From NCBI GenBank assembly GCA_045105775.1, contig JBGCDW010000074.1, positions 1-13,741 on the forward strand: a stretch of DNA of 13,741 nucleotides, in the 5' to 3' direction. Under the pieces are notes generated by a model. That model saw nothing but the letters and a program-made list of their open reading frames with translations. It ran no database searches and was not told the DNA's origin. Of this stretch, positions 1 to 13,702 are shown piece by piece. Numbering within the stretch: the stretch's first letter is position 1; every line of letters begins with the position of its first letter. Origin of the DNA: Aureispira sp. (GTDB lineage Bacteria > Bacteroidota > Bacteroidia > Chitinophagales > Saprospiraceae). A program made the position numbers and the translations under genes.

Positions 1-303
1 CTCCTCTTTTACTTGTTTGAGTTGTTGGCGTTCTTGCTTCACTGTTGCCTTTACTTTTTCTTTATCATCTTTTTCAGTTAGTATTGCTCTACGACCTTGA
101 CCAGGCTTTGTTTCTAAGCCTTTTATTCTTAGCCTTAAATAGCGGTTGACCCATCTATTTACTGGTTGTGGTGTCGTACAAACTATCCTCGCTATCTCTT
201 CAGATGTTTTTCCCTCACTTTTTAGCAATACCATGTGACAACGCCTTGAATATGCAGCAGAATTTGAGCTTTTATAACCTTTCTTTAATTCCTCTCTCTT
301 CAT
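1..303 (-). CDS. IS630-family (Tc1/mariner-superfamily) transposase, N-terminal HTH region only; the 3' part of the gene lies beyond the window start
   Basis: Reverse-complement of 1..303 is an open frame with no stop up to the window edge. It reads MKREELKKGYKSSNSAAYSRRCHMVLLKSEGKTSEEIARIVCTTPQPVNRWVNRYLRLRIKGLETKPGQGRRAILTEKDDKEKVKATVKQERQ... This carries the typical IS630 N-terminal pattern: A..RxxxVLLxxEGxSxxEIA, then an HTH with a W-containing recognition helix, then the 'KPG.GR...LT.E' motif. The ORF track missed it because the stop lies outside the window. An alternative start at 337 in another frame gives MGRKAKKVEITDEERGIKERL*, which matches the canonical extreme N-terminus even better. 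That suggests a frameshift near 275-285. Confidence 0.6.
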   Translation of the reverse strand, partial: MKREELKKGYKSSNSAAYSRRCHMVLLKSEGKTSEEIARIVCTTPQPVNRWVNRYLRLRIKGLETKPGQGRRAILTEKDDKEKVKATVKQERQQLKQVKEE

Positions 304-340
304 CCGTTATCTCTACCTTTTTAGCTTTTCTTCCCATCTT
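1..340 (-). mobile_element. Partial IS630-family insertion sequence: the transposase 5' end plus upstream leader. The element continues beyond the window start, and its terminal inverted repeat is not defined
   Basis: See the transposase CDS above. The element boundary cannot be set without the other end. The IS lies just downstream of the ATPase-operon 3' end (stop at 752). Confidence 0.45.
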
Positions 341-751
341 TTTGGAAGTAAAGATAACATGTTATTTATTTTGAACAACTACTTATAGCTTTTGTTTGGG
401 CTATTAAAACGGGGGAATGGTTAATCAAAAATGGAACTACTATTCCGATCAAAAAACTTAAGTACAGGAGAGCCAAACTCTACAGTATCTTTAGAATTGG
501 CTTTGATCATTTACAAGAAAAATTACTCTATCATATCCCCTTTTTTAACGAAATTCGACTTTTGTCCTGTACTTAGGTTACATATATAAAGATAAATTCA
601 ATTTTTTGATTGTGAGTATACAGGTCAGTTTTTTGTATAAGACAATTGGTTCGTTCCATTGTACTATACTGAAATTAGAATTAGTCGTGTCAATAACAAA
701 AGTACTATTAGCAGTTAAAACCACAGTATGAATGCGGCTTTAAGTATTTAC

Positions 752-3700
752 TTACGATTTCTTAAACACAATTCCACCTGATTTAGAAACAGGAGCAACC
801 GCTTTTTGCTGCGCGCCTTGCTCAATTCCTTCTTCCAATGCTTGGTGAATACTTTGCAAATGATCAGAAAACTGAGACAATTGCGCCACTACCTGCACCA
901 ATGGATTATCTTTATTACCCTGCAACAGCTTATCCTTATTAAAAGCCGCTTTGATTGCCTTCCAACGAACAGCTTCTTCCTCTGTTAATGCACCAATCAA
1001 TTCTTTGAATTTGAGCATATTGGATTCTGCACTAGAGGTGAGTGTTTGCGACTCGCCCTCATAGTGTGCAATGAGCAAGGTTTGCAATTCTTTTTCATTG
1101 GTAATAGGCGTAAGCTTTTCTACCAACTTGTTCATATTTCGATAAGAACCCTGTAATTTAAAGGCAGGTTCTGTACGGAAAGCCTCTTCCATGGCTGCGG
1201 AGCGAATATACTCTAAGTTAACTTTGAGAATGGCATCTCTAATCACTAGCATACGCTCTACCAAGGCTACAAATTCATTCACTTCCTGACTGCTGTGATT
1301 GCCCTCCAATTCGGCACCATCGCGACTTCCTGTTTGAGCATATTGCACCACGGCATAAATATCCTTGGCTCCCTTAGTGGCTAGTTTTTGCAATATGGCA
1401 TTAGAAGTCAAGGAATTCTCAATATAACTCAACTCAAAAACATCTTTGGTATCTCCAATAATATCACCCAGATTGTAAATGTCAGAACGGTTGGCCAACA
1501 TGTCTGGAACTTGGAACTTGTCGCCACTTTCGGTATATGGATTACCAGCCATGACCACAGCTACTCGTTTTCCTCTCAAATCATAGGTCTTGGTTACCCC
1601 TTTGTAAATACCCTCAATCTTGCGCTGTCCATCGGTCAAAGAAATGAATTTCTGCAAAAACTCAGGATGACAGTGCTGAATATCATCCAAGTAAATCATG
1701 ATGTTATCACCCATTTCCAAGGCCAGGTTGAGTTTTTCCAGTTCCTTGGCAGCAGCAGCATTGCCCGCCTCGCTCGGATCGAGCGAAACGACATTGTGTC
1801 CTATAGCGGGGCCATTGATTTTCATAAAAATAAGTCCCAGACGATCTGCCACATACTCCATCAAGGTAGTTTTACCATAGCCAGGAGGCGAAATGAGCAA
1901 GAGCATTCCCATTCTATCCGTACGGGTATTATCACCAACAGTACCAATTTGTTTGGCCAAGTTGTCTCCAAAAATAGGCAAATACAATTGGTCAATTAAT
2001 TTGTTTCGCACAAAAGAACTCAATACTCTTGGCTTGAATTCCTCCAAACGCAATGCTTGTTTAAAGTCTTGTGTTAAGGCGCGTTTCATGGTAACAAATT
2101 GCTCATATTGGGCTACTGTTTTAGCTTGATAATAGCTCAATTTGTTCATAAAAGCATTGTAGTCCATTTGGTAAATACCACCAGACCCAATGACAGCGTG
2201 TGCCCCATGCAATCCCTTTATTTCTTGATTGGTTTTGACGTTAATAACATGGCTTTCTTGATAGTTTTGTGTAAGAATAACCACCACTGCTTCTTGCAAA
2301 TAAGAAGTATACTCCGTCAGCTTTTGCTGCTCAATAAAAGCACTCAACCATTTTTGGCACAACTCAAATTGTTGCTCCAATTGCCCTTCCAAACTTTTGA
2401 GTACAGCATTAAAAGATTCTTTGGCTTGTTGACGCTCCAAGTATTGCTTGAACTCTGTTTGCAAATCATGGGCACTGCCACTGACAATGAAATGGTTTTG
2501 TCTAGACCATTCATCAAATAAATAGCGAGCAGCAGTTGGTACCAAATGTTCGTCGAACAAAGAATATTGCTTCAAAAAATCGCGCAAACCTTCCTCTAAT
2601 TGTTCTAATAAAAAATCAAACTCCTTGGTTTGAGGAAAAACTTTACGAATCAATCCTGCACTTTTTAGCTGTTTGTCAAACGTAGTTTTATTTTCCTCCG
2701 TTATAAATTTCTGCCAATACAAAGTTGCCAAAGCTCTTGCTTTGCTCTCATACACCAACAAATCAATATACTCGTGCAAGTATAAGATAGATTCTAAGAA
2801 TTTGGCAGCATCCAAATCGTGGATACCTTTGCTGTATCCTTCCTCTTTGGTGGCTCGTTCATTGACCAATTGCTGCACATAAGGCAAGACCTCTTCCGAA
2901 GTCAATTTTTTTCTTTCTTCTTGCAATTGTAAGAACGCAATATAAGCCAAGTACTCCGCTCTATACACTTGGCTATTCTCAGAAATAAGAGCTTGCTCCC
3001 AGACCGCTTTTGTCTCTAAGAAATTAGGCTCTTCTACTTCCTCATAGAAACCTGTTCCAGTGAGGTGATAGTACATTTTTCCTTCCTTGAGTGTCATGGT
3101 CAAGCCCAATGCTTGCTTGTTGACAGAGAAGAAATGACGACCAAATTTAATGGCATTGCCATCCGCAGAGAACAAATCTTTTCTGTCCTTCAATTGGCGA
3201 ATGCTATCTTCTTGAATGGTTTTGAGACGTGTTTGTACATCATCTGCCTTGTTAGAATCGCCCAAATCTTGCAATTTTTGGATGATGTCTCTAACTTTTT
3301 CAATCATCAAATCTGCTGCAAAAAAGCCATTGATGTCGTCTATTTCCTTAAAGTTCTTGACGCGATTGGCAATACCTTTTAGGTTTCTTTCGGCAGCCGT
3401 TTGTAGGGCTGTGCTGCGCTTGTTGGTTGCCTCAATAATGGACAAGCGGCGCGATTCAAACGCATTGCTAATCGCCTCGCGTTTATCGGCAATTTTGACA
3501 ATAAACTCATCAAATTCAGCAAATTTGCTTTCCAACTCCTCTACCTGAATCATCATTTTGGTATAATACTCATCGGCCTTTTCTACGGTGTTGGCAATAT
3601 CCAAGTAGTTGATGAGTCCTTGATCTAGGAGTTTGGATTGGGCGGCAAATTCGGCTACTGCTTCTGCACCCGTCAAGTCGCGCAAGCGGCGTTTGATGGC

Positions 3701-5725
3701 TGCTTTGGCTTGGTTGAGTGTGGCAAAAATAGCCGTGATATTATCGATGATGCGTGTTGTTTGGGTGGCATCCTCAATTTTGAGATTGGAAACAATTTCG
3801 ATCAATAACTCCAACTCTTTCCCAATTTCATCAATGCGCTCCTCTAGCTTTTGACCTTGACGCGCTGTTTCTACGTCTTCAATATTGGCCTGGGCTTGGG
3901 CTACACGCTCCAAATAGGGCTGTAGAGCATTGGGCTGTAGCAAAAACTGCACACAAGATTGGGAGAGGTTGTTGCTAATGTCCATCGCTTCGGTCTCCAA
4001 TTCCTCAATCAAGGACAAATCTGTATAACGCAATGCTTTGAGAGAAATAATAGCCCCTCTAATTTTGCGCAATTCGGCCAAGTGCTGCACAAACTGATCC
4101 ACCTTGAGATAGGTGGTGCCTTTGATGACTCTGAACAAAGCCACGGCTTCCTTTTGCGTTTCGCGAATGGTTTCACGCGTGTTTTTTCGGATGTTCTGTA
4201 CCTTCTCAAACTCATCAATAGCCGTATTGGCTGATGCTCGAATGGCCGAAATAGGAGTGGATAAATTGTAGGCTTCCTCATTATCAATCCAATAATAAGA
4301 ATCTAAAATGACGGTTGCTCGTTTGTTCAAATCAAAATACAAATCATCATAACTGTCATCTTGTGCCAAGAGACTCAACAATTCTTGACACTCGGCCATA
4401 GCGCGCACTATGTCTTTATTACTAATTTTATAAATATAAGAATCAGCATGTTGAGAAGGGAGTACATTGCCTTTGATGTAAGGGGTTTGCCATACTTGTA
4501 CCAAGTGGTGTGAAGTCTTGGTGTCCTCGCTTCTGAAGTAACACAGTTCTCCATCAGGAAAAAGACTGTACCCATTACAAATAATAGGGGTGGTGACGGT
4601 TTGTTCAATAACATTGTAGGAGAGGAGTATATAGGCTCCATCTTCTGGGCTATGAAAAACATACAAATGATCTTCTCCATTGGGCGATTGAAGGTGCTGC
4701 TCAAACAGTTTGTTTTGTCCAGGTGTTTTGTCAAACATCTTAAAGTCACCTGTCTGTAAATAAAAGCCATTGGAAAAAATCAAGCCTTGTTCATTGGGCA
4801 GCAGTACCCCTGAGTGTGCTAGAGCATCGACACGCTGCACGGTTTGAAGTTTTACATTATACACAAAATACCTAAATTCTTCTTGATAAGGTTTGATGCG
4901 CAAAGCAATAAGGTTGCCCAAATCTGCATAGTTGACGGTGGCATCACTAACTTTCTGATTGGCGTGTTTGACCTCCTCTGCATAAATCCCTTTGCCTGTA
5001 TCGGTATTGTCTTCAATTTTTATGGTCAAATCTCCATCTACTGTTTCTACAAACACCTTATCTAAAATAGAGATGTGTGGATGTGGCCCTTGGCGGTACA
5101 TGTCCATACGAACGGATTGCCACTCAAATTCAAACTGATTGGGGTAACGATAGTTTTTATCACCAGGAGAGGAGTCGTAAATCAACTGGTTATCTTTGAT
5201 CTCCCATTTAAAGGTTTTTTGACCATTACCATCCTTAAACACCATATAAAAGAACGGCTCATTCTTATCACGGGCAAATTTTAGAAAATAGACTTCCTTG
5301 GAGTAACGATAAAGACTCTTGAAGTCTGCTTCAAATTTTTCACTCCCTTTGGGACGAATAAGGTCTAATCCAACTTCTTTGTAACTGTGGTCATCTTTAA
5401 ATTCATAGATGCTAAACACATCTTGCAGCTCAATGTTTTTGAGCCCCATTCTAATATTATAACCAAAAATACAATAGCGTCCAATAGAGAAAATATCTCT
5501 TGCAATACACTCGTGCTGGGTTTCAATACGTTGGTTGCTAATGAGTTTCATTTCAATAGAACCAAAAACCTCTTTTCGTGCTTGGTTGAGTTTTTCTAAA
5601 CGTCCATGTAAGTCATTGCCGTTTTTTTGCAGACGATTTTTAATAATCTCATAAGTACTTCCCTCTAATTGTTGGTTGTGCTCTGTTGTCTCTTCTGGAG
5701 TTGTTGTTGTTGTATCTTCAGCCAT
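752..5725 (-). CDS. Giant multidomain AAA+ ATPase (1657 aa). Beta-rich N-terminal region of about 470 aa, long alpha-helical/coiled-coil middle region (aa ~470-1250), and a single MoxR/AAA_5-like ATPase module (aa ~1260-1460) followed by a C-terminal helical tail
   Basis: Uninterrupted 4974-nt ORF. Walker A reads LLLISPPGYGKTTLMEY (P-loop codons at 1865..1882, aa 1282-1287). Walker B reads IMIYLDDIQH (~1672..1701). Sensor-1/helix-2-insert region VAVVMAGNPYTESGDKFQVPDMLANRSD resembles the MoxR 'ATQNP...LPEAQLDRF' block. The N-terminus is rich in aromatic residues and beta-like segments (YFLKF, FYMVFKDG, YILLSYNV, CYFRSED). The middle is E/K/Q/L-rich and helical. No SD sequence; A-rich leader. 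Confidence 0.85.
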   Translation of the reverse strand: MAEDTTTTTPEETTEHNQQLEGSTYEIIKNRLQKNGNDLHGRLEKLNQARKEVFGSIEMKLISNQRIETQHECIARDIFSIGRYCIFGYNIRMGLKNIELQDVFSIYEFKDDHSYKEVGLDLIRPKGSEKFEADFKSLYRYSKEVYFLKFARDKNEPFFYMVFKDGNGQKTFKWEIKDNQLIYDSSPGDKNYRYPNQFEFEWQSVRMDMYRQGPHPHISILDKVFVETVDGDLTIKIEDNTDTGKGIYAEEVKHANQKVSDATVNYADLGNLIALRIKPYQEEFRYFVYNVKLQTVQRVDALAHSGVLLPNEQGLIFSNGFYLQTGDFKMFDKTPGQNKLFEQHLQSPNGEDHLYVFHSPEDGAYILLSYNVIEQTVTTPIICNGYSLFPDGELCYFRSEDTKTSHHLVQVWQTPYIKGNVLPSQHADSYIYKISNKDIVRAMAECQELLSLLAQDDSYDDLYFDLNKRATVILDSYYWIDNEEAYNLSTPISAIRASANTAIDEFEKVQNIRKNTRETIRETQKEAVALFRVIKGTTYLKVDQFVQHLAELRKIRGAIISLKALRYTDLSLIEELETEAMDISNNLSQSCVQFLLQPNALQPYLERVAQAQANIEDVETARQGQKLEERIDEIGKELELLIEIVSNLKIEDATQTTRIIDNITAIFATLNQAKAAIKRRLRDLTGAEAVAEFAAQSKLLDQGLINYLDIANTVEKADEYYTKMMIQVEELESKFAEFDEFIVKIADKREAISNAFESRRLSIIEATNKRSTALQTAAERNLKGIANRVKNFKEIDDINGFFAADLMIEKVRDIIQKLQDLGDSNKADDVQTRLKTIQEDSIRQLKDRKDLFSADGNAIKFGRHFFSVNKQALGLTMTLKEGKMYYHLTGTGFYEEVEEPNFLETKAVWEQALISENSQVYRAEYLAYIAFLQLQEERKKLTSEEVLPYVQQLVNERATKEEGYSKGIHDLDAAKFLESILYLHEYIDLLVYESKARALATLYWQKFITEENKTTFDKQLKSAGLIRKVFPQTKEFDFLLEQLEEGLRDFLKQYSLFDEHLVPTAARYLFDEWSRQNHFIVSGSAHDLQTEFKQYLERQQAKESFNAVLKSLEGQLEQQFELCQKWLSAFIEQQKLTEYTSYLQEAVVVILTQNYQESHVINVKTNQEIKGLHGAHAVIGSGGIYQMDYNAFMNKLSYYQAKTVAQYEQFVTMKRALTQDFKQALRLEEFKPRVLSSFVRNKLIDQLYLPIFGDNLAKQIGTVGDNTRTDRMGMLLLISPPGYGKTTLMEYVADRLGLIFMKINGPAIGHNVVSLDPSEAGNAAAAKELEKLNLALEMGDNIMIYLDDIQHCHPEFLQKFISLTDGQRKIEGIYKGVTKTYDLRGKRVAVVMAGNPYTESGDKFQVPDMLANRSDIYNLGDIIGDTKDVFELSYIENSLTSNAILQKLATKGAKDIYAVVQYAQTGSRDGAELEGNHSSQEVNEFVALVERMLVIRDAILKVNLEYIRSAAMEEAFRTEPAFKLQGSYRNMNKLVEKLTPITNEKELQTLLIAHYEGESQTLTSSAESNMLKFKELIGALTEEEAVRWKAIKAAFNKDKLLQGNKDNPLVQVVAQLSQFSDHLQSIHQALEEGIEQGAQQKAVAPVSKSGGIVFKKS

Positions 5726-5782
5726 GATGAGTTGGTTTCGTTGCTTGTCTTAGTTGGGGGTGGATTGTAGGTAGTCTATTAA

Positions 5783-7606
5783 CTAAAATTTTTCGTTTAG
5801 TTGTGTTAGTTGTTTGGATAATTCTGACAATTGGTAGGTATCAACCAATTCTGTTATTTGTGGAAGAACGCTCTTTTGTATAAATTGTATTTCGTATCCT
5901 CCAAAACTACTTTCTTGCAAGTACGTCATGTATTTCTTTAAGAGTCGTGCCCCTTTTTCTTTTTGGTTGGTTTGGTAGAATTGTTTGATAATTTGCACCT
6001 GCTTGGCAACCATAACATTTATAGTCTTTGCAAAGTAGTTATACCAGTTGTTCTGTAGTTTCTTAGCTTTTTTGATTTCATTCTGCTCAATGAGTGTCTT
6101 TATAGTTTGGGTAAAACTCAAGGTAATTGAATAAAAAGTAGGAAAATCCTCTAATTCAATATCTTCAAAAACTGGCCACTTAAATTCTTGAATAAAAAAG
6201 CGATAGTTGATTAGGGCTTGCTCCTTGCTCAAGTTTTTATTATCTCTTTCTTTGTATTCAAATAATTGGTTGATCCCATATGTGTGAATATACTTTGATG
6301 CTCCAGTATTAGTCATAAAATTAGACCCAGATACTTGGTTTCCATAGCTTGGTGCAAATAGGATAGGCCGCGTCTTGTAATTAGATGCTAATATCGCTAA
6401 TAGAAGAATTTCAGAGCGTACTAGAGAGGTTTGTGGACAAATTAGCTTGGGAGCATCTGGATCGTAATGGCCCAGTACAAAGCTACGTGTCGAAGCTGTT
6501 TTGATACCCTTGCGCTTAGATGCTAATAATTTTATCAACATTTTGACAGGCCAGGCTTTTTTTTCTGTATTTTCTTCCAATAAAATATAATCGCCTTTGG
6601 GAGCTTGATAATGCTCTAAATCAAGTCCTATATTTAGGTATTTGTCTTTGTAATAAGATTGATCAGACAAATGCGCACCATAGTAATGTGCATTGAGCAA
6701 ACTTTCATTGACTATCAATACATCTTCCCGTATTTTTTTAGCTTGCTGCAAATACAACAGTGGATAAGTATCGTTATCACCGTATGTAAATAGAATGGCA
6801 TTTGGGGGACAACTCAATAAGCTATTTTTGCTAAAAGCTATGGTTGCTGGTGTATACAGTTCTTTGCCTTCAACTGTTGCCAATGCTTTTTCCTTAAACC
6901 CTAAGAAAGCTAGGCGCATACTTAGGGTTAGAATTTCATTGCAATATTTGGTATATATGCTTCCCACCACTGTTTTAAAATCAGGATCTAGTTCATTAAC
7001 TTTTTTGAAGCATTGGGCAGCTAGATTGCCATTATCAATCAAAGAATCTAGCCATTCAGGTGCTTGATTGATGAGGTGGTATTTGCCATAGTCTAAAATA
7101 TATTGAGCAGATTTAAAGGAATGTGCTCTTCCTAGAGAGTAGTAATCATCAGGACTACTTAAAGGATATTTTTTATAATAATCAATAGTTTGGACAGGCC
7201 AATTATTATCACCAAAAAAACGATTGATATTGTATTCATCCGTATGAAAATACTTGGTAGCAATAGGTCGTTTTTGGAAATGCTCCCGTTTGATTTTTAG
7301 CGGCATCGCTTCACCTTTGATGACCAATTCATCTACATAACCCTCTTTGGGCGACCAAATTAATTGCTTATTATCTGAATAAACCCAGTTTCTATCTTGA
7401 TAATGGCCAACAGTAATCCAAAAACCTTGGGTATCTTTTAGAACATTGAGTCGAGTCATTCGATCCAATTTTATTGAGCAAATCCCCTTTTTTACAACAT
7501 GTTCTACTACTTCATGATACAATGGAAAATCACGGGGCAGTTGTGCCCAGAGGGTACAAGATAAATAGCTAATTAATAAAGTGGTATAGAAAAGCTTTAA
7601 TAGCAT
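5783..7606 (-). CDS. Secreted or periplasmic protein of unknown function (607 aa) with an N-terminal signal peptide
   Basis: Long ORF lying between the flotillin gene and the ATPase gene with short gaps (68 nt upstream, 57 nt downstream). N-terminus MLLKLFYTTLLISYLSCTLWA|QLP has the n/h/c regions of a Sec signal peptide with an AxA-like LWA cleavage site. I recognise no catalytic motif with confidence (TYGDNDTYP and HYDPDAP are possible metal-binding patches). Same strand and spacing as its neighbours, so it is inferred to be co-transcribed. Confidence 0.8.
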   Translation of the reverse strand: MLLKLFYTTLLISYLSCTLWAQLPRDFPLYHEVVEHVVKKGICSIKLDRMTRLNVLKDTQGFWITVGHYQDRNWVYSDNKQLIWSPKEGYVDELVIKGEAMPLKIKREHFQKRPIATKYFHTDEYNINRFFGDNNWPVQTIDYYKKYPLSSPDDYYSLGRAHSFKSAQYILDYGKYHLINQAPEWLDSLIDNGNLAAQCFKKVNELDPDFKTVVGSIYTKYCNEILTLSMRLAFLGFKEKALATVEGKELYTPATIAFSKNSLLSCPPNAILFTYGDNDTYPLLYLQQAKKIREDVLIVNESLLNAHYYGAHLSDQSYYKDKYLNIGLDLEHYQAPKGDYILLEENTEKKAWPVKMLIKLLASKRKGIKTASTRSFVLGHYDPDAPKLICPQTSLVRSEILLLAILASNYKTRPILFAPSYGNQVSGSNFMTNTGASKYIHTYGINQLFEYKERDNKNLSKEQALINYRFFIQEFKWPVFEDIELEDFPTFYSITLSFTQTIKTLIEQNEIKKAKKLQNNWYNYFAKTINVMVAKQVQIIKQFYQTNQKEKGARLLKKYMTYLQESSFGGYEIQFIQKSVLPQITELVDTYQLSELSKQLTQLNEKF

Positions 7607-7629
7607 GTTTAGTAGGATTTAGTTTATTG

Positions 7630-7661
7630 TAGTAGGGCGCAACACTTGTTGCGCCCTACTA
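7630..7661. promoter_or_regulatory. Perfect 15-bp GC-rich inverted repeat with a 2-nt spacer, in the 68-nt gap between the flotillin stop and the 607-aa gene start
   Basis: tagtagggcgcaaca-ct-tgttgcgccctacta. This is the most stable local hairpin in the window and sits in otherwise AT-rich DNA. No U-tract follows on either strand. It lies about 24-55 nt upstream of the downstream start codon on the minus-strand mRNA. Confidence 0.6.
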
Positions 7662-7674
7662 AATATGTTGTGCC

Positions 7675-10329
7675 TTAGAGTACTTTATCGGCAGCATCAT
7701 TGCCCATACCTAAGCTTTTGACCGTTTCCATCAAGTTTTGAATGACTCCTTTATCGTCGCCTACAGCTTTGTTGTACAACTGCATCAATAGGGCAGACAA
7801 GGTTACATTTTTGATGGTTTCAGTACCAATATCATACTGGCTTACAAAACCTCCAATACGCGATAGAATATTATCATCACCATCACCTAGCAAGGCACCT
7901 TTTACTACCTGCAATTCTTCACTGCTTTCCATTAACTTATCAATGGTTTTACCACGCTTAATAGCATTGATAATATTGTTGAAGAATTCTGTTTCACCGC
8001 CTACAATGTCAATATTAGCATTGTTGAAGGCCCCAGCTAGGATACGAGCGTGAGACTCTGCAATACCCAATTCTGCTTGGATTTCTGCAATTCTGATTTC
8101 TCTTTGCTGCTCTAGGCGCAATTTGAACTCTTCGTGCTCTTTGCCTACACCATCCAATAGCTTCATGGCATTGGCTTTGGCTTCAATACCTTTGGCTTCT
8201 GAAATCAATTTTTCACCAATAGTTTTGGCTTCGGCTAGTCCATGCTGCTCTAGTGTTTGAGCTTCGGCCAAACCTTTTTGTTCTTTGACCTTAGCCTCTG
8301 CTAGACCTTGTTGTTCGGTTACTTGCGCTTGAGCCAAACCTTCTTTTTCTAGGCGTAGAGCCTCGGCCAAACCTTGCTGCTCAGTTACTTTGGCTTCGGC
8401 CAAACCTTGCTCTTCAATAATTTTGGCTTCAATCAAACCTTGCTGTTCTTTAACTTTAGCAGCAGCTAGACCTTGTTGTTCGGTTACTTGCGCTTGAGCC
8501 AAACCTTCTTTTTCTAGGCGTAGAGCTTTTGCCAAGCCTTGTTGCTCCGTAACTTTGGCTTCGGCCAAACCTTGTTGCTCGGTTATTTGAGCTTTGGTTA
8601 AGCCTTTCTGCTCGATTACTTTGGCTTCGGCCAAGCCTTGCTGCTCTACAATTTTGGCTTCAGCCAGACCTTGCTGCTCGGTTACTTTGGCCGCTGCCAA
8701 TCCTTTCTTTTCCGTAGTTTGAGCCTCGGCCAAACCTTGCTGCTCAATAACTTTGGCTTTGGCCAAACCCTGACGCTCAATTATTTCTGCCTCTGTATTA
8801 CCTTTTTCTTTGATAATATCAACATCCACCATGCCTCTAGCACGTTCGGCTTCGGCTTTCATTTCAATGGCTTTGGCTTCAGCTTCAGCACGTTTTTGTA
8901 AAATATTGGCTTGTGTTATGCCCTCCATTTCTTTGGCTTCGGCTTTGGCTTTCATCACATCTGCTTCGGCCAAACCAACGGTTGCTTCTTCTGCCGCCAA
9001 TGCCTCTGCATTGATTTTACGTGCTTCGGCATCTTTTTGAGTAGCAGCTTTTTTAGCATCGGCCTCAATCACAATTTGCTGTGCTTTTACTTCTGCGGCT
9101 AGTTTATCTGATTCTGCACGACGTGTTTGAGTGATTTTTTGCATTTCAGCTTCTTTAGAAGCTTCAATTTCCGCTACTTTTTTGGCACGTTCGGCAGCAG
9201 CCAATTGCTTAACATCTTCAATTTTTTGATCTTCCTCTACGGTCTTTTTTTCCTCGGCTTTACGCTCTTTGATAATAACTTGGATGTCGCGTTTTTTCTC
9301 TTCTAGGATTTGCTCTTTTTCAATTTCTGCCAATCCTACCGTACGTTCTTTGTCTGCAATTGCTTTTTGTTCCTCTGTTTCTACGCGTTGAATTTGAACT
9401 TTTTCTAATTCTTCTTTATTGAGTCGAGCAAGGATGATTTGACGTTCTTTGTCTTCTTCTGCTTCCCCCAGCTTTTGTTCGGATTGCTTGCGAACCAGTT
9501 CAGTTTGCAAATCTTTTTCAATGACGACTTGTTTGGCCGCATTTTCCTGTTCACTAGTCAATTCTCGAATTTCACGTTTTTGTTTTTGTTCTTCTTCGAT
9601 TTGCTGTTTTTCTAAGCGAATGATGTTTTTTCTAGCCTCTACATCTTGCTCTTTGATGGTTTGTTCTCGATTGCGTCGAATTTGATTGGTGCGTTCTTGC
9701 TCTACAGACGTAAGCTCTTCAATCTTCTTGATACCTTGTGCATCTAGGATATTCTTTTGATCTAAATCAGATAAAGAGGTTTGCTCTAAGTAGTCAATAG
9801 CACAGTCATCGAGTTCATAACCATTGAGGTCTGTACCAATTGTTTTTAGAATTTCTTTCTTGAATTCCTCTCTTTGTGTATACAAGTTGATGAAATCAAA
9901 GCCTTTACCCACGGTTTTGAGTGCTTCGGAGAATTTGGCATCAAACAGATTGTTTAAGGTTTCTTGTTGAGAGGCACGTTGGCAACCGATGGTTTGTGCT
10001 ACTTCCTTAACAGAAGCCTCATCCTTGTTGATCCGCACAAAGAAGACCACCTTGATGTCTGCACGCATGTTGTCTTTACAAATCAATCCTTCTGACCCAG
10101 TACGATGTACCTCAATGGTTTTGAGAGAGATGTCCATTTCTTCTACCGTGTGCATGATCGGGAATACAAACAAACTGCCGTCTAAGACAACTTTGGTACC
10201 ACCCGCACCTGTACGTACCAAGGCTTTACCCTGTGGAGATTTACGCAGGGATTTTAATAAGACTAATATACCCCCTGTAGTGATAACAAGGAGGATAGCC
10301 AAAAATATATACAAAACAGATTCACCCAT
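7675..10329 (-). CDS. Flotillin-family SPFH/band-7 protein (YqiK/FloT-like), lengthened to 884 aa by a tandem 11-residue-repeat stalk
   Basis: N-terminal TM helix (VLYIFLAILLVITTGGILVLL). The SPFH core (aa ~30-215; KVVLDGSLFVFPIMHTVEEMDISLKTIEV...ADIKVVFFVRI...) has the typical flotillin beta-alpha pattern. A long E/K/Q-rich coiled coil follows. Next come about 17 hendecad repeats E-Q-Q-G-L-A-E-A-K-V-T. The C-terminus is flotillin-like (GAFNNANIDIVGGETEFF..., LLGDGDDNIL...GG). Confidence 0.88.
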   Translation of the reverse strand: MGESVLYIFLAILLVITTGGILVLLKSLRKSPQGKALVRTGAGGTKVVLDGSLFVFPIMHTVEEMDISLKTIEVHRTGSEGLICKDNMRADIKVVFFVRINKDEASVKEVAQTIGCQRASQQETLNNLFDAKFSEALKTVGKGFDFINLYTQREEFKKEILKTIGTDLNGYELDDCAIDYLEQTSLSDLDQKNILDAQGIKKIEELTSVEQERTNQIRRNREQTIKEQDVEARKNIIRLEKQQIEEEQKQKREIRELTSEQENAAKQVVIEKDLQTELVRKQSEQKLGEAEEDKERQIILARLNKEELEKVQIQRVETEEQKAIADKERTVGLAEIEKEQILEEKKRDIQVIIKERKAEEKKTVEEDQKIEDVKQLAAAERAKKVAEIEASKEAEMQKITQTRRAESDKLAAEVKAQQIVIEADAKKAATQKDAEARKINAEALAAEEATVGLAEADVMKAKAEAKEMEGITQANILQKRAEAEAKAIEMKAEAERARGMVDVDIIKEKGNTEAEIIERQGLAKAKVIEQQGLAEAQTTEKKGLAAAKVTEQQGLAEAKIVEQQGLAEAKVIEQKGLTKAQITEQQGLAEAKVTEQQGLAKALRLEKEGLAQAQVTEQQGLAAAKVKEQQGLIEAKIIEEQGLAEAKVTEQQGLAEALRLEKEGLAQAQVTEQQGLAEAKVKEQKGLAEAQTLEQHGLAEAKTIGEKLISEAKGIEAKANAMKLLDGVGKEHEEFKLRLEQQREIRIAEIQAELGIAESHARILAGAFNNANIDIVGGETEFFNNIINAIKRGKTIDKLMESSEELQVVKGALLGDGDDNILSRIGGFVSQYDIGTETIKNVTLSALLMQLYNKAVGDDKGVIQNLMETVKSLGMGNDAADKVL
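8180..8790 (-). repeat. Tandem 33-nt (11-codon) repeat array, about 17-18 units, inside the flotillin CDS. It contains a 165-bp higher-order duplication (8300..8361 is identical to 8465..8526)
   Basis: The protein reads E[QK][QK]GL[AT][EK]A[KQ][VI][TVK] repeated head to tail. At DNA level, the 62-bp string gctagaccttgttgttcggttacttgcgcttgagccaaaccttctttttctaggcgtagagc occurs twice, exactly 165 bp (5 units) apart. The flanking units are also near-identical. Confidence 0.85.
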
Positions 10330-10597
10330 GATTAATTGTTTTTAGTTAGTTGAGTAATAAGGCTTTGGCACAAAGGGTAATGCCAAAATATGAAATTGTT
10401 AGATTGAAAATTATTTTTTACAACTATTAACGCTTATCCCGAATAAAGTTGTATGGTTCGCTGTAGCATTTTTTCCTTTATCTGCATCATCGAAAGACGT
10501 ACAGCCTCTCCGAGGATGCACGTTTTCGCTTCTTCGCTAAAGATAAAAATCAAAACAGCTCTCTTTTCATAAATTCTATTCGTGATAACCGTTATTG

Positions 10598-11335
10598 TTA
10601 ATGCTGTGTCCAGCGTTGGACTAGGTATGTTTTTTTCTCTTCGTCTTCTTGTATGATAATCACTTCTGTACCTTTCTCTATGAGTTCACCTGTATCAGAA
10701 CGAACTCTTAAAGTAATAATAGATTCGTCAATAGTGGCTTTGAGCTGGCCCGTTTCCTCTCCTTTGATACTAGTGAGCAAAGTGCCTATTTTGCCATTAA
10801 TAACCAATGGTTTGGCAAAGGTATTTCCATGTTTAAACAAAGGAACCAAAGGCATGGTCAAGAATTTGGCAGCAAAAAGACTCGCCAATACAAGAGGCCC
10901 AAAGAGCAAAGCTGCCGTTCCCAAAGAATTGGTTGGATTGATCCAACTACTCTCATGGTTGCAGTAGACGGATAAAGACCATAAGGATAAAATAAACATG
11001 GACAATAAGACCATAAAAGGAACACGCCCTAAATTAAAAAAGCGTAAACCACCAAGTAAAATAGAACCAGCAGTAATTCCTGTATCGGCATTTGCATCTA
11101 CATCCGCATCCGCATCAACGTCTACATCGGCATCCACGTCTATATCAACATCCACATCAACGTCTACGTCGGCATCCACATCTATATCAAAGCTTTTTAG
11201 GCCTACCACACCTAAAATAACGGTTAGCCAGTAAAAACAGATGATTCCCAATAAAATGGTTAAAACAAAGTTGGGGGTGGATAAGGCTGCAGTGAGTAAC
11301 TCTTTCATAGGTTCATATTGTAATAAGTATAACAA
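10598..11335 (-). CDS. YqiJ/NfeD-like inner-membrane protein: N-terminal multi-TM domain plus C-terminal NfeD-type OB-fold beta domain, carrying an internal (Asp-Val)n dipeptide-repeat tract
   Basis: Several hydrophobic helices (FVLTILLGIICFYWLTVILGVVGL, ILLGGLRFFNLGRVPFMVLLSMFILSLWSLSV, AALLFGPLVLASLFAAKFLTMPLVPLF). The C-terminal ~70 aa (GKIGTLLTSIKGEETGQLKATIDESIITLRVRSDTGELIEKGTEVIIIQEDEEKKTYLVQRW) have the short all-beta character of NfeD/YqiJ C-terminal domains. The gene lies directly upstream of a flotillin gene, which is the conserved yqiJ-yqiK / nfeD-flotillin arrangement. Confidence 0.72.
   Translation of the reverse strand: MLYLLQYEPMKELLTAALSTPNFVLTILLGIICFYWLTVILGVVGLKSFDIDVDADVDVDVDVDIDVDADVDVDADADVDANADTGITAGSILLGGLRFFNLGRVPFMVLLSMFILSLWSLSVYCNHESSWINPTNSLGTAALLFGPLVLASLFAAKFLTMPLVPLFKHGNTFAKPLVINGKIGTLLTSIKGEETGQLKATIDESIITLRVRSDTGELIEKGTEVIIIQEDEEKKTYLVQRWTQH
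11086..11190 (-). repeat. Imperfect hexanucleotide (GAYRTN)n tandem repeat of about 17 units, encoding DIDVDADVDVDVDVDIDVDADVDVDADADVDANAD in the YqiJ-like protein
   Basis: Plus strand reads catccgcatccgcatcaacgtctacatcggcatccacgtctatatcaacatccacatcaacgtctacgtcggcatccacatctatatc. The encoded protein has a strict alternation of Asp with Val/Ala/Ile over 35 residues, located after the first TM helix. Confidence 0.85.
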
Positions 11336-11535
11336 GTAAGAAATACAAGCAATAATACTAAAATCCAGTAAATAAAAAGACCAACTTTCTTAATTAAATA
11401 ATTGATAGTAAAACTATTTTTAATAAAAGCTTAACTTTTGTTGTTGTATTGTTAATACATATAATTGGGCAAATTAGTTTCCTTGTGTGTTATTATTTTG
11501 GAATAGGTTTAATATTCTTAGACTACTTTAGTATT

Positions 11536-11576
11536 AAAAAAATGAGTCTTCCCATTTTATGCACGGGATGACTCAT
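11536..11576 (-). terminator. Second terminator-like hairpin plus U-tract, paralogous to the one at 11761..11797
   Basis: Stem atgagtcttccca / tgggatgactcat (11542..11554 pairs with 11564..11576; 12 of 13 positions pair, one t-t mismatch) around a 9-nt loop. A U7 tract follows on the minus strand (plus-strand A7 at 11536..11542). It shares the left arm 'aaaaaaatgagtc' and the 'ttatg' loop core with the downstream copy. Confidence 0.55.
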
Positions 11577-11760
11577 CGTTCTAGTATTTATAGAATCAAA
11601 AATAGTTTGTCTGTGATCGTAAGCTTAATTATAATCATCTAATAAGAAATTACGGTCAAGCGTCTTGTTTTATTGGGTGTGAACAAGTGCTAGAGCTTTT
11701 ACTTACGTGACCCCTGAAATTTGAGGTTGTACCTTTTTTCATCTACTTAAATGTTAGTGT

Positions 11761-11797
11761 CAAAAAAATGAGTCATCCTGTTTATGAATGACTCATA
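11761..11797 (-). terminator. Rho-independent terminator closing the three-gene module at 13702..11837
   Basis: On the minus strand, atgagtcat (11796..11788) and atgactcat (11776..11768) form a perfect 9-bp stem with an 11-nt loop. A U7 tract follows immediately (plus-strand A7 at 11762..11768). The element begins 40 nt after the lipoprotein stop codon. Confidence 0.7.
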
Positions 11798-11836
11798 ATT
11801 GAGTGTAGAATATTTTGTGTTCAATTGTAAATTTAG

Positions 11837-12325
11837 TTACAACCATCCAGTAATAAGATCACCTTTTAGCATAGGTGTTACAGACTGTACTTTTTCATCT
11901 TTCATTTTGATGTAATACTTAGGTTTGTCTTGCACAAAAACAACAAAAACATCTTTTAGTGGAATATCATTTTCCAATAAATCTTTATTTGCATCTGCGT
12001 TCTTTTTTTCTGCTGTTTCCCAAGTATGAATTTCACATTTTTGATTGTTTAGATCCATTCTTAATCCTGTTAATTGGGCGACATAAGCATCTAATAAGAA
12101 TTTACTGTCTTTAGAAGAATCTTGTTTTACTTGATCTATGTATAAAAAATGTTCATCTATTATATTATCAATACTTAGAGCATCATTTTTTAATGCACTA
12201 AATAATTTTTCTACTTTTTTAATATCTTGATCCATTATATTGTTTTTATGAATTTTGTTATTAGAGTCACAACTAATTATTGCTATACTTAATAATAGTG
12301 ATAATAAATTAAAGTAATTTAGCAT
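11837..12325 (-). CDS. Small lipoprotein of unknown function (162 aa)
   Basis: Signal peptide with lipobox MLNYFNLLSLLLSIAIIS|C (I-I-S-C fits [LVI][ASTVI][GAS]C). The start codon is 5 nt downstream of the preceding gene's stop, indicating translational coupling. A hairpin plus U-tract terminator follows directly. Confidence 0.7.
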   Translation of the reverse strand: MLNYFNLLSLLLSIAIISCDSNNKIHKNNIMDQDIKKVEKLFSALKNDALSIDNIIDEHFLYIDQVKQDSSKDSKFLLDAYVAQLTGLRMDLNNQKCEIHTWETAEKKNADANKDLLENDIPLKDVFVVFVQDKPKYYIKMKDEKVQSVTPMLKGDLITGWL

Positions 12326-12330
12326 GTTTT

Positions 12331-13134
12331 CTATTTTTGTTTACTGCTTCCATTTCCACCAGTTGTATTGGAGGTAACTTGACCATTGTGATCCTCTTTC
12401 AAATCTTCTCCTAGATCTCCGGGATTATGTCCACCACCAAATGGCCATGTACCCCTTTGAGATGAAACATTCCAACCTGCAGCTCCTGCCACTTCAATGC
12501 CAAAATCTGTGCAGTTGTAGGTATTGAGATTATAAGTATTTGACCCATTATTCTCTACATACTTTAATGCATCAAAAAATTGCTTGTGAGTTATCTCTCT
12601 AGTTGCTTGTACTTCTGCACCGTGTCCTGTATCAGATTGGAGCATTCCCCCTACTTCGGGTGCTCTAGGGTCAACACCACTACTAGGATAAAAACCTATG
12701 GTGGCTTCAACCTTGGTTCCATCAGTATTAATTTTCACAAGATGCACAAATGTATGGCCTACATCTACTGAAGTGAGGGGAGAACCTTCATAGGTATCTC
12801 TATCTCCTCCTGAACCTGGCTGGTCTACTAAGATAGAAATTTTATACGTTTTACCTTCTTTACAATCGTAAAATTGTTTAGTAAAGGTATTCCCTCCAGA
12901 GCAAGGTGCTTTATTATTTGAGTTTTGTTTGCTATTTGTATTGTGTTTTGTTCTCAGTTCGGCGAGTTTAGTCTGCACTAAGTTAATAGTATTTTGCATA
13001 CTATCTAACTGCTTCTGCTCGTCCGTATCAACAAAGCCATCTTCTGCAAACAAATTCTGATACTTAACTAAAGTATCTTTCATTGATTGTACTTCTTTTT
13101 CAAGTTTTTCTATTTTTTCAGCTTGAGTTGCCAT
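12331..13134 (-). CDS. N-terminal coiled-coil segment fused to a PPPDE/DeSI-type (DUF862-like) permuted-papain-fold cysteine peptidase domain (267 aa); no signal peptide
   Basis: N-terminal heptad-like helical segment (aa 1-65). Domain aa ~95-225 has the His-before-Cys order of permuted papain folds. The TYKISILVDQPGSGG block matches the DeSI 'KLYVYDL..G' start. The VDVGHTFVHLV block matches 'GIWHTSIVV' (His127, codon 12754..12756). The YNLNTYNCTDFGIEVAGAAG block matches DeSI-1 'YNLFEHNCNTFSNEVAQFL' almost residue for residue (Cys208, codon 12511..12513). The C-terminal tail is Gly/Asn/Thr-rich and low-complexity. Confidence 0.78.
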   Translation of the reverse strand: MATQAEKIEKLEKEVQSMKDTLVKYQNLFAEDGFVDTDEQKQLDSMQNTINLVQTKLAELRTKHNTNSKQNSNNKAPCSGGNTFTKQFYDCKEGKTYKISILVDQPGSGGDRDTYEGSPLTSVDVGHTFVHLVKINTDGTKVEATIGFYPSSGVDPRAPEVGGMLQSDTGHGAEVQATREITHKQFFDALKYVENNGSNTYNLNTYNCTDFGIEVAGAAGWNVSSQRGTWPFGGGHNPGDLGEDLKEDHNGQVTSNTTGGNGSSKQK

Positions 13135-13162: not shown

Positions 13163-13702
13163 TTATAAATTTAGAGCTTTTACGATTGCATCAAGTCGGT
13201 CGCTAATCTTGCCAATGTTTTCATTGATTTTTGCTCTAGCTTTTTCATTGACCCTTTTGCCAGGTTTTGAGCTGTCAGAGCCTTGTGCTACGGCCTCTTT
13301 GAGTGCGTTTAGTTGTGTTTGTAGTTCATCGATTTGTGCTTGCTCTTCCTCATCGATTACGCCGTCTTTTTTAGCTTCTTCGATGAGCTTGCTTAAAGCC
13401 GTTTCATATTTGGCAATATTGGCGTTCAATGTATCTTGAGGAGCTTTATCTTTGACTTTATCCATCTTGTCAATGCCCTCTCTCATTTGACCCATTTGGG
13501 TGCTTCTTTTAGCTTTATTGGCTTCAAGTGTAGCTGTATCTTGGTCCTCTCCTGTAGTTTCTGTTTCATCATCTGATACACTAGAAGCGTTAGGGTTGTA
13601 TAAGCGTAGAATTTCGCCATTTTTGGCAGCATAATCAGTATCGGCAAAAATTTGTTCCAAAGAACCTTTATCTTCTCCTTCTACTTTACCTTCTAAGGAC
13701 AT
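13163..13702 (-). CDS. Acidic coiled-coil protein of unknown function (179 aa as annotated; may extend N-terminally beyond the window end)
   Basis: ORF with a Met start at 13702. The 39 nt from that Met to the window end are also open in frame, so the true start may lie outside the window. The sequence is strongly acidic and helical (EEEQAQIDELQTQLNALKEAVAQG). It shares the motif G-[VF]-[IV]-D-x-[ED]-E-Q-x-Q-[IL]-D-x-[LM]-Q-[TN]-x-[LI]-N with the N-terminus of the downstream peptidase-domain protein. Confidence 0.65.
   Translation of the reverse strand: MSLEGKVEGEDKGSLEQIFADTDYAAKNGEILRLYNPNASSVSDDETETTGEDQDTATLEANKAKRSTQMGQMREGIDKMDKVKDKAPQDTLNANIAKYETALSKLIEEAKKDGVIDEEEQAQIDELQTQLNALKEAVAQGSDSSKPGKRVNEKARAKINENIGKISDRLDAIVKALNL

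Follow-up and report, generated by a model that had tools for sequence, protein, structure and literature searches.

Four genes lying in the same orientation on a 13.7-kb contig of an Aureispira sp. metagenome-assembled genome (Saprospiraceae, Bacteroidota), a stretch referred to here as the window, raise the question of whether they constitute one functional cassette. They encode a YqiJ/NfeD-like membrane protein, a flotillin-like SPFH protein, a secreted protein of 607 amino acids (aa) and a giant ATPase of 1657 aa that ends in an AAA+ module. A sequence-only reading of the locus had treated all four as a single system, one for which no described counterpart was known. The analysis reported here leads to a different answer, to which a probability of roughly 0.7 is assigned: in Aureispira the locus represents a three-gene membrane-maintenance operon that is widespread and vertically conserved, and the 607-aa gene was inserted, in this lineage only, into a slot between the flotillin and ATPase genes.

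The link between the ATPase, flotillin and NfeD-type genes is conserved and not coincidental. Relatives of the ATPase (43-70% identity) were examined in 80 genomic loci or genomes from Bacteroidota, Planctomycetota, Verrucomicrobiota, Desulfobacterota, Clostridia and Kiritimatiellota, and the open reading frames (ORFs) of these loci were searched with the window proteins. A flotillin homolog (E-values of 1e-100 to 1e-280) lies directly upstream of the ATPase gene and on the same strand in 71 of the 80 loci, and six of the remaining nine are contig ends with less than 1.6 kb of upstream sequence. Upstream of flotillin, a YqiJ-like gene is present in 59 loci. The neighbourhoods of these homologs had been named beforehand as the test of the sequence-only reading, and the outcome was divided: the giant ATPase is indeed coupled to the NfeD/YqiJ-flotillin pair, across six phyla, whereas the homologs of the 607-aa protein are unlinked to it. 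Between the window and its closest relative (locus L169) the core genes evolve under strong purifying selection, with ratios of nonsynonymous to synonymous substitution rates (dN/dS) of 0.03-0.04. Clustering of the neighbouring genes showed that a PspA/IM30 protein of about 240 aa (PspA_IM30, E 1.7e-44) heads the operon in 27 loci. Among the Bacteroidota, a 131-aa CesT_Tir_1 protein (E 5.7e-57) is found at the operon head in 25 loci, and a divergently transcribed regulator combining HTH_XRE and S24-like parts stands beside the operon in 25. No conserved gene follows the ATPase among the 80 loci.

An operon of this composition has already been described, so that the supposed novelty of the arrangement does not hold. 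Ravi et al. 2024 (mSystems, PMC11237479) reported an operon of YqiJ/YuaF, flotillin and AAA+ genes, usually with a CesT/Tir-PspA pair at its head, and noted "abbreviated" forms of it; the description is one of comparative genomics and is purely computational. Among their examples, the context of Dokdonia donghaensis ANH61663.1 comprises an opposite-strand cHTH plus protease regulator, CesT_Tir, YqiJ-YuaF and a Band-7 plus coiled-coil protein (PMC11237479), elements that match the Bacteroidota ATPase loci found here. Neighbourhoods of PspA with band 7/FloT and NfeD were also noted by Popp et al. 2022 (PMC9239133). No mention of DUF3686, of PF12458 or of "DNA repair ATPase" together with flotillin was returned by the literature searches, in which no experimental study of the ATPase or the operon was found either. 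Of the 80 loci, 25-27 contain the full form (XRE/S24, CesT_Tir_1, PspA, YqiJ, flotillin and ATPase). Neither the CesT/Tir-PspA pair nor the regulator is present in the window, which therefore represents the published abbreviated form. The window differs from the described operon further by an extra TMEM260_2 gene between flotillin and ATPase, by a flotillin lengthened by about 16 repeats of 11 aa, and by the absence of a small SPFH paralog present in other Aureispira. The locus is thus a variant, specific to its lineage, of an operon already known from computational work. The NfeD2(YuaF)-FloT pair of Bacillus subtilis and the YqiJ-YqiK pair of Escherichia coli likewise have an NfeD/YqiJ-type gene directly upstream of a flotillin-like SPFH gene, but no giant ATPase is linked to either.

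The 607-aa gene behaves otherwise. It is absent from all 80 ATPase loci (0/80). Stand-alone relatives of its product were located by an alignment-based scan of metagenome contigs that yielded a further 80 loci, and within 10-kb neighbourhoods of these no flotillin, YqiJ or ATPase homolog occurs (0/80). With the gene missing on the one side and its relatives unaccompanied on the other, the four-gene cassette cannot be upheld as a conserved unit. Contig co-occurrence of relatives P0171 and P0184 with ATPase P0025 had been considered as a linkage to the module elsewhere and was rejected, as the genes are not within 10 kb of each other in L086.

The position occupied by the 607-aa gene is variable in many genomes. 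The flotillin-ATPase junction is mostly shorter than 130 nucleotides (nt), and in about 25 loci unrelated ORFs lie inside it. Their products include DUF559 and PDDEXK_3 nucleases, IS200-like transposase, DMP19-like, beta-lactamase-family and M54-like proteins and lipoproteins; a Rieske oxygenase fills the slot in L086, a 62%-identical relative. As an observation in its own right, the occurrence of DUF559, PDDEXK_3 and IS200-like genes at this junction in unrelated phyla is the behaviour of an insertion hotspot (L031 9536-9958, L034 9344-9901, L036 9522-9941, L066 9538-9912, L002 5662-6186 and L048 6802-7251). The tolerance of the junction to insertions may be due to a terminator-like hairpin after the flotillin gene, discussed below.

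Within Aureispira the slot holds a gene of the 607-aa type in at least six contigs, namely the window, L169 (6106-7929), L168 (10001-11830), L082/L083 (8133-9959 in L082), L167 (10001-11815) and L081 (4353-9960). The copy number ranges from zero to three, with three tandem copies in L081, and nothing occupies the slot in A. anguillae (L084) or the nearest Saprospiraceae locus (L001). Where the ATPases of two genomes are 88-92% identical and the N-terminal halves of their flotillins 91% identical, the identity of the slot proteins is only 44-48%. The copies are roughly equidistant from one another, and homologs outside the slot reach at most 32% identity to the 607-aa protein. Between the window and L169, the dN of the 607-aa gene is about nine-fold above that of its neighbours (Table 1). 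Variability is highest in the TPR-like C-terminus (36% mean pairwise identity, versus 55% in the Rossmann-like part). Judged from these comparisons, the slot gene looks like an Aureispira-specific clade that has undergone tandem duplication, loss and fast divergence in place. It is nevertheless under net purifying selection, which is compatible with a functional but dispensable accessory gene, and the evidence favours a passenger rather than a new subunit.

The product of the slot gene had been said to contain no recognisable domain; it does carry TMEM260_2, a domain newer than the local copy of Pfam. A confident AlphaFold2 (AF2) model (predicted local distance difference test, pLDDT, 88.4; predicted TM-score, pTM, 0.86) has a small beta domain and helices at aa 30-250, followed by an alpha/beta domain and C-terminal helical repeats. 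The signal peptide is the N-terminal helix, a single one in the AF2 model, with cleavage predicted between LWA and Q, and the family consensus of the signal peptide ends in Ala-Gln, which is the usual signal-peptidase I context of Bacteroidota. The alpha/beta domain is Rossmann-like and bears the invariant motif C-P-x-N-A-I-L-F-T-x-G-D-N-D-T-Y-P-L, including GDNDTYP; the protein matches the start of the Rossmann-like domain of TMEM260, and its C-terminal domain has a TPR fold. Altogether 740 homologs were found, with PF28495 throughout, and they fall into two groups, stand-alone proteins of about 600 aa and DUF2723/GT117 glycosyltransferases of about 1000 aa. The 607-aa protein and about 60 stand-alone relatives contain PF28495 only, whereas the longer relatives combine PF11028, PF28495 and PF28497.

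The Rossmann-like plus TPR (Rl-TPR) lobe is the part that the 607-aa protein has in common with the GT117/DUF2723/human TMEM260 O-mannosyltransferases. Compared with the full-length enzymes, it has an extra N-terminal region of about 230 aa and a signal peptide only, without PF11028. No GT-C transmembrane catalytic module (DUF2723, PF11028) was detected in it, and therefore it cannot be the transferase. In human TMEM260 the luminal Rl-TPR lobe recognises acceptor peptides (bioRxiv 10.64898/2026.03.17.711096). The 607-aa protein is best read as a non-catalytic periplasmic module that binds proteins or peptides.

The flotillin-like protein consists of an N-terminal membrane hairpin, a Band_7 domain at aa 31-213, a long Glu/Ala-rich coiled-coil region and a conserved C-terminal domain. 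Flotillins of this type are typically about 700 aa long elsewhere and 708-884 aa among Aureispira relatives, and the length of the window protein is due to expansion of a 33-nt repeat, for which Tandem Repeats Finder reported a period of 33 and 12-13 copies in overlapping arrays. By its sequence, the scaffold protein is a divergent SPFH protein. A side feature of several relatives is an additional small SPFH paralog (183-243 aa), corresponding to the transmembrane (TM) segment and Band_7 N-terminus of flotillin, which lies between yqiJ and the full-length flotillin gene (L081 1024-1575, L082 5094-5654, L084 6523-7197, L086 5520-6251, L167 6916-7467 and L012 6951-7502). The paralog is present in neither the window nor L169, and a tblastn search of the 268-nt yqiJ-flotillin gap recovered no remnant of it.

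Directly after the flotillin stop codon stands a very stable GC-rich hairpin, which is unexpected between the flotillin stop and the 607-aa start inside a tight operon. It is likely to be a terminator/attenuator or a transcript-stabilising element. Hairpins of differing sequence occupy the same place in L081 (about 4294-4321), L082 (about 8037-8078) and L084 (about 9732-9765), and these have U-rich tails, whereas the copy in the window has none. Conservation of position but not of sequence across four Aureispira genomes suggests a terminator/attenuator between the scaffold and motor genes.

The giant ATPase is 100% identical to the NCBI entry "MAG: DNA repair ATPase [Aureispira sp.]" and belongs to a large family, with more than 3,800 homologs found. 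Its N-terminal 700 aa match 898 clusters (50% identity) at E<=1e-3 and 257 at E<=1e-30, mostly from proteins of 1600-1900 aa. Beyond DUF3686, Pfam recognises DUF7902 at aa 599-682 and AAA/AAA_5 at aa 1275-1398, and a long helical region connects the N-terminal DUF3686/DUF7902 part with the C-terminal AAA+ module. The DUF3686 part has been reported as beta-propeller repeats (Ravi et al. 2024, PMC11237479). The assignment of the AAA+ module to the MoxR type, made at the outset, is supported by its AAA_5-type core, the closest fold of which is that of MoxR members. This core includes a sensor-1 residue (N1395), an arginine (R1413) and a beta-hairpin between helix alpha3 and strand beta4; the aligned homologs show no variation in Walker A (GYGKT), N1395 or R1413. 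In Walker B the second acidic residue is Asp (D1347-D1348, window 1682-1687) where a catalytic Glu is usual, and all 12 homologs compared, the most distant at 53% identity, have the same pair. Searching PDB sequences with the ATPase family profile matched only the P-loop of about 40 residues (p97, RuvB) and recovered no solved relative, and NCBIfam gave only P-loop-level RuvB matches. Whereas MoxR ATPases such as CbbQ, NorQ and RavA are proteins of about 300-500 aa that usually have a VWA-domain partner, here the motor sits at the end of 1657 aa, Walker B is DD rather than DE, and no VWA gene is nearby. Pfam found no VWA domain in the window proteins, and no conserved VWA cluster is present among the neighbours in the 80 ATPase loci.

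The YqiJ-like ORF could be extended to a TTG at 11335; the ATG at 11308 is the likelier start, as it gives a protein of 236 aa compared with 228-242 aa in relatives. Its Pfam match to YqiJ_N is weak (E 3e-4; 21.4 bits, under the 23-bit cut-off), YqiJ_N is matched by 11 of 26 family members (best E 4.5e-7), and the family profile weakly matches the soluble domain of B. subtilis YuaF (2k14, E 0.073). Three hydrophobic segments and a beta-rich C-terminal domain, together with the position of the gene, fit the YqiJ/YuaF type. As a side observation, the loop between TM1 and TM2 is an acidic (Asp-Val/Ile/Ala)n repeat (window 11084-11190, codons about 50-85) encoded by an 18-42-nt tandem repeat, and its D-x-D-x pattern is kept across 26 aligned orthologs; the loop could bind cations.

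For the three-gene core we infer each step of a scaffold-plus-motor model. Flotillin would oligomerise on the cytoplasmic side of the inner membrane and form an SPFH cage there, with YqiJ as its membrane partner, binding through a C-terminal OB-like domain. The ATPase would bind the flotillin lattice through its DUF3686 head and helical arm, and would spend ATP to assemble, disassemble or remodel the scaffold (along with PspA where this is encoded) during envelope stress, an action that would be comparable to that of Vps4 on ESCRT-III or of MoxR ATPases on their partner proteins. The hairpin after the flotillin gene would probably lower transcription of the ATPase gene relative to the scaffold genes. 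The 607-aa protein would most likely bind a periplasmic protein or peptide ligand without being an obligatory part of the machine. The framing as a stress response is due to the PspA, CesT/Tir and XRE-S24 genes of related operons; these head the operon in 25-27 Bacteroidota loci and fit the role in membrane remodelling or repair that had been proposed from the sequence.

The pairing of an SPFH cage or an ESCRT-III/PspA polymer with an AAA+ motor is established. HflK/C with FtsH, and PspA/ESCRT-III with Vps4-type ATPases, follow this general logic of a membrane-scaffold polymer served by a motor, and for the window operon they would be an analogy of function. The motor of the window is not homologous to those of FtsH and Vps4 and has neither a protease domain nor a MIT domain. 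The core operon may be viewed as a candidate bacterial scaffold-plus-motor system for membrane remodelling.

Several points weigh against the three-gene interpretation or against details of its mechanism. The remodelling step is drawn by analogy. Walker B Asp-Asp rather than Asp-Glu could mean that ATP turnover is slow or regulatory, and the structure model of the AAA+ module is only moderately confident (pLDDT 65.6). Pfam Band_7 is reached at E<=0.01 by only 5 of 25 flotillin homologs, and the flotillin family profile found nothing in the PDB at E<=1e-3, the only match being to QmcA within the coiled coil (E 0.0037). HMMs (hidden Markov models) built from the loci found none of PspA, CesT and XRE, whether in the window or, up to 10 kb away, in Aureispira relatives. 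Finally, a local functional link of the 607-aa gene to the module is possible. The gene has been kept in this slot and on the same strand, is separated from the ATPase gene by an unstructured spacer of 57 nt, and has a dN/dS of 0.19.

These last features could also be expected of a genuine four-component trans-envelope machine in which the 607-aa protein is, at least in Aureispira, a dedicated periplasmic subunit or sensor. Such a machine would account for retention of the gene in the window, L169, L168, L081 (as three tandem copies), L082/L083 and L167, for purifying selection that still acts on it, and for the concentration of variability in the TPR-like domain, the part that in human TMEM260 recognises the ligand. 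It is nonetheless unlikely, as the gene is missing from every one of the ATPase loci sampled, from A. anguillae and from the nearest Saprospiraceae locus, and as its relatives occur without flotillin, YqiJ or ATPase. The same slot elsewhere holds plainly unrelated and selfish genes, a strong hairpin separates flotillin from the 607-aa gene, and the copy number runs from none to three. The trans-envelope complex suggested by the sequence-only reading draws on the inserted gene only. A related and slightly less probable proposal is that in Aureispira the captured periplasmic Rl-TPR protein serves as a fast-diversifying extracytoplasmic ligand-binding adaptor that would feed a cue or client to YqiJ-flotillin-ATPase, and hence that a true trans-envelope variant exists in this genus. 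Its clients might then be, for example, damaged or foreign envelope proteins, and the adaptor would be a sensor shaped by birth-and-death evolution in situ.

A hypervariable secreted protein next to a MoxR/McrB-like ATPase also recalls an anti-phage or conflict system in which the ATPase senses infection and the secreted protein is a diversifying specificity factor. This is improbable: a PADLOC search (PADLOC-DB v2) of all seven window proteins gave as best match mad8 (E 0.0097), over the P-loop region only, and none for flotillin, YqiJ or the 607-aa protein; the core genes are highly conserved and syntenic across phyla under strong purifying selection, in contrast to what is typical of defence islands; domains that could act as effector (nuclease, toxin or protease) are absent from the core; and the PspA and CesT/Tir association points to envelope stress. 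Less credible still is that the 1657-aa protein is a DNA-repair ATPase, as labelled, and that its adjacency to flotillin has no functional meaning. The label comes from the Pfam text for DUF3686 ("ATPase involved in DNA repair") and the NCBI homolog name, with weak RuvB matches confined to the P-loop, and neither domains, context nor fold lend it support; the name "DNA repair ATPase" given to it in databases is probably wrong.

For the membrane-maintenance operon, interest lies mainly in the uncharacterised core. The combination of NfeD/YqiJ, flotillin and giant MoxR-like ATPase occurs in six or more bacterial phyla. Among the SPFH scaffolds noted here it alone has a dedicated AAA+ motor that is non-proteolytic, which makes it a good entry to how flotillin/PspA assemblies form, turn over and are coupled to envelope stress. 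Of secondary interest is the hypervariable insert, a stand-alone, fast-evolving TMEM260-like version of the substrate-recognition lobe of a protein O-mannosyltransferase, which may inform how such lobes evolve independently.

Table 1. Features of the window, listed in the direction of transcription; dN and dN/dS refer to the comparison of the window with L169.
Feature	Coordinates	Strand	Evidence or remark	dN	dN/dS
Two intrinsic-terminator-like hairpins	11796-11768 and 11577-11541	-	Folding; T7 after each		
YqiJ/YuaF-like (NfeD-like) membrane protein, 236 aa	10598..11308	-	From ATG 11308	0.018	0.039
Spacer segment of about 190 nt	10416-10608	-	Folding		
Flotillin-like SPFH protein, 884 aa	7675..10329	-	Pfam Band_7 E 2.5e-14	0.015	0.031
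Tandem 33-nt repeat in flotillin gene (11 aa, EQQGLAEAKVT-like), about 16 copies	8257..8805	-	Tandem Repeats Finder		
GC-rich hairpin directly after flotillin stop codon, 14-bp stem	7630..7661	-	dG -26.6 kcal/mol, z -7.6		
Secreted TMEM260_2-domain protein, 607 aa	5783..7606	-	PF28495	0.134	0.194
ATPase, 1657 aa (DUF3686, DUF7902, MoxR-like AAA+)	752..5725	-	Pfam	0.014	0.034
DUF3686 (PF12458) domain, aa 38-478	4292..5614	-	Pfam E 6.6e-162		
AAA+ core, aa 1275-1398	1532..1903	-	Walker A PPGYGKTT; Walker B YLDDIQ		
IS630-like transposase, N-terminal fragment (winged helix-turn-helix)	1..337	-	HTH_29 E 5.8e-9, HTH_23, HTH_32		

Every long ORF of the window is on the minus strand, and the four co-oriented ORFs of the earlier description were recovered as such (Table 1). 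The spacers of 68 and 57 nt on either side of the 607-aa gene were also given correctly, but the gap between yqiJ and flotillin, at 268 nt, is not short. This gap holds a segment of about 190 nt that L169, the closest relative, does not have; its fold is a long, imperfect hairpin (dG -53 kcal/mol, z -4.1). No Rfam match to the segment and no second copy in any fetched locus were found; it could be an insert resembling a miniature inverted-repeat transposable element (MITE) or a structured leader.

Upstream, the pair of strong terminators noted from the sequence is present on the coding strand, with folding energies (dG -13.8, z -4.3, and dG -19.8, z -6.8) far better than those of shuffled controls. 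The two terminator-like hairpins insulate the operon from the genes upstream of it. Downstream, the expected insertion sequence (IS) element is represented by IS630-like transposase sequence, but only the helix-turn-helix part lies within the window, about 110 N-terminal codons in a disrupted frame that runs past the window end. No Rfam family was matched anywhere in the window. Of the Bacteroidota-type promoter motif TAnnTTTG, searched for upstream of each gene, a single site was found, 296 nt 5' of yqiJ, and at 0.87 sites/kb this is not beyond chance.

Beyond the terminators, which part them from the operon, lie two minus-strand genes (12331-13134 and 13163-13702) with coiled-coil-rich products and no confident Pfam domain; the 267-aa product has a C-terminal domain with Cys/His. 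These genes are unlike those at the same position in L169. The divergence of the window from L169 is itself a mosaic: nucleotide identity is 94% over 10609-12899 and 88% over 735-10415, and the synonymous rate (dS) is 0.046 for an upstream 162-aa gene versus 0.42-0.69 for the four operon genes, a pattern that may reflect recombination, with a breakpoint close to the yqiJ-flotillin spacer.

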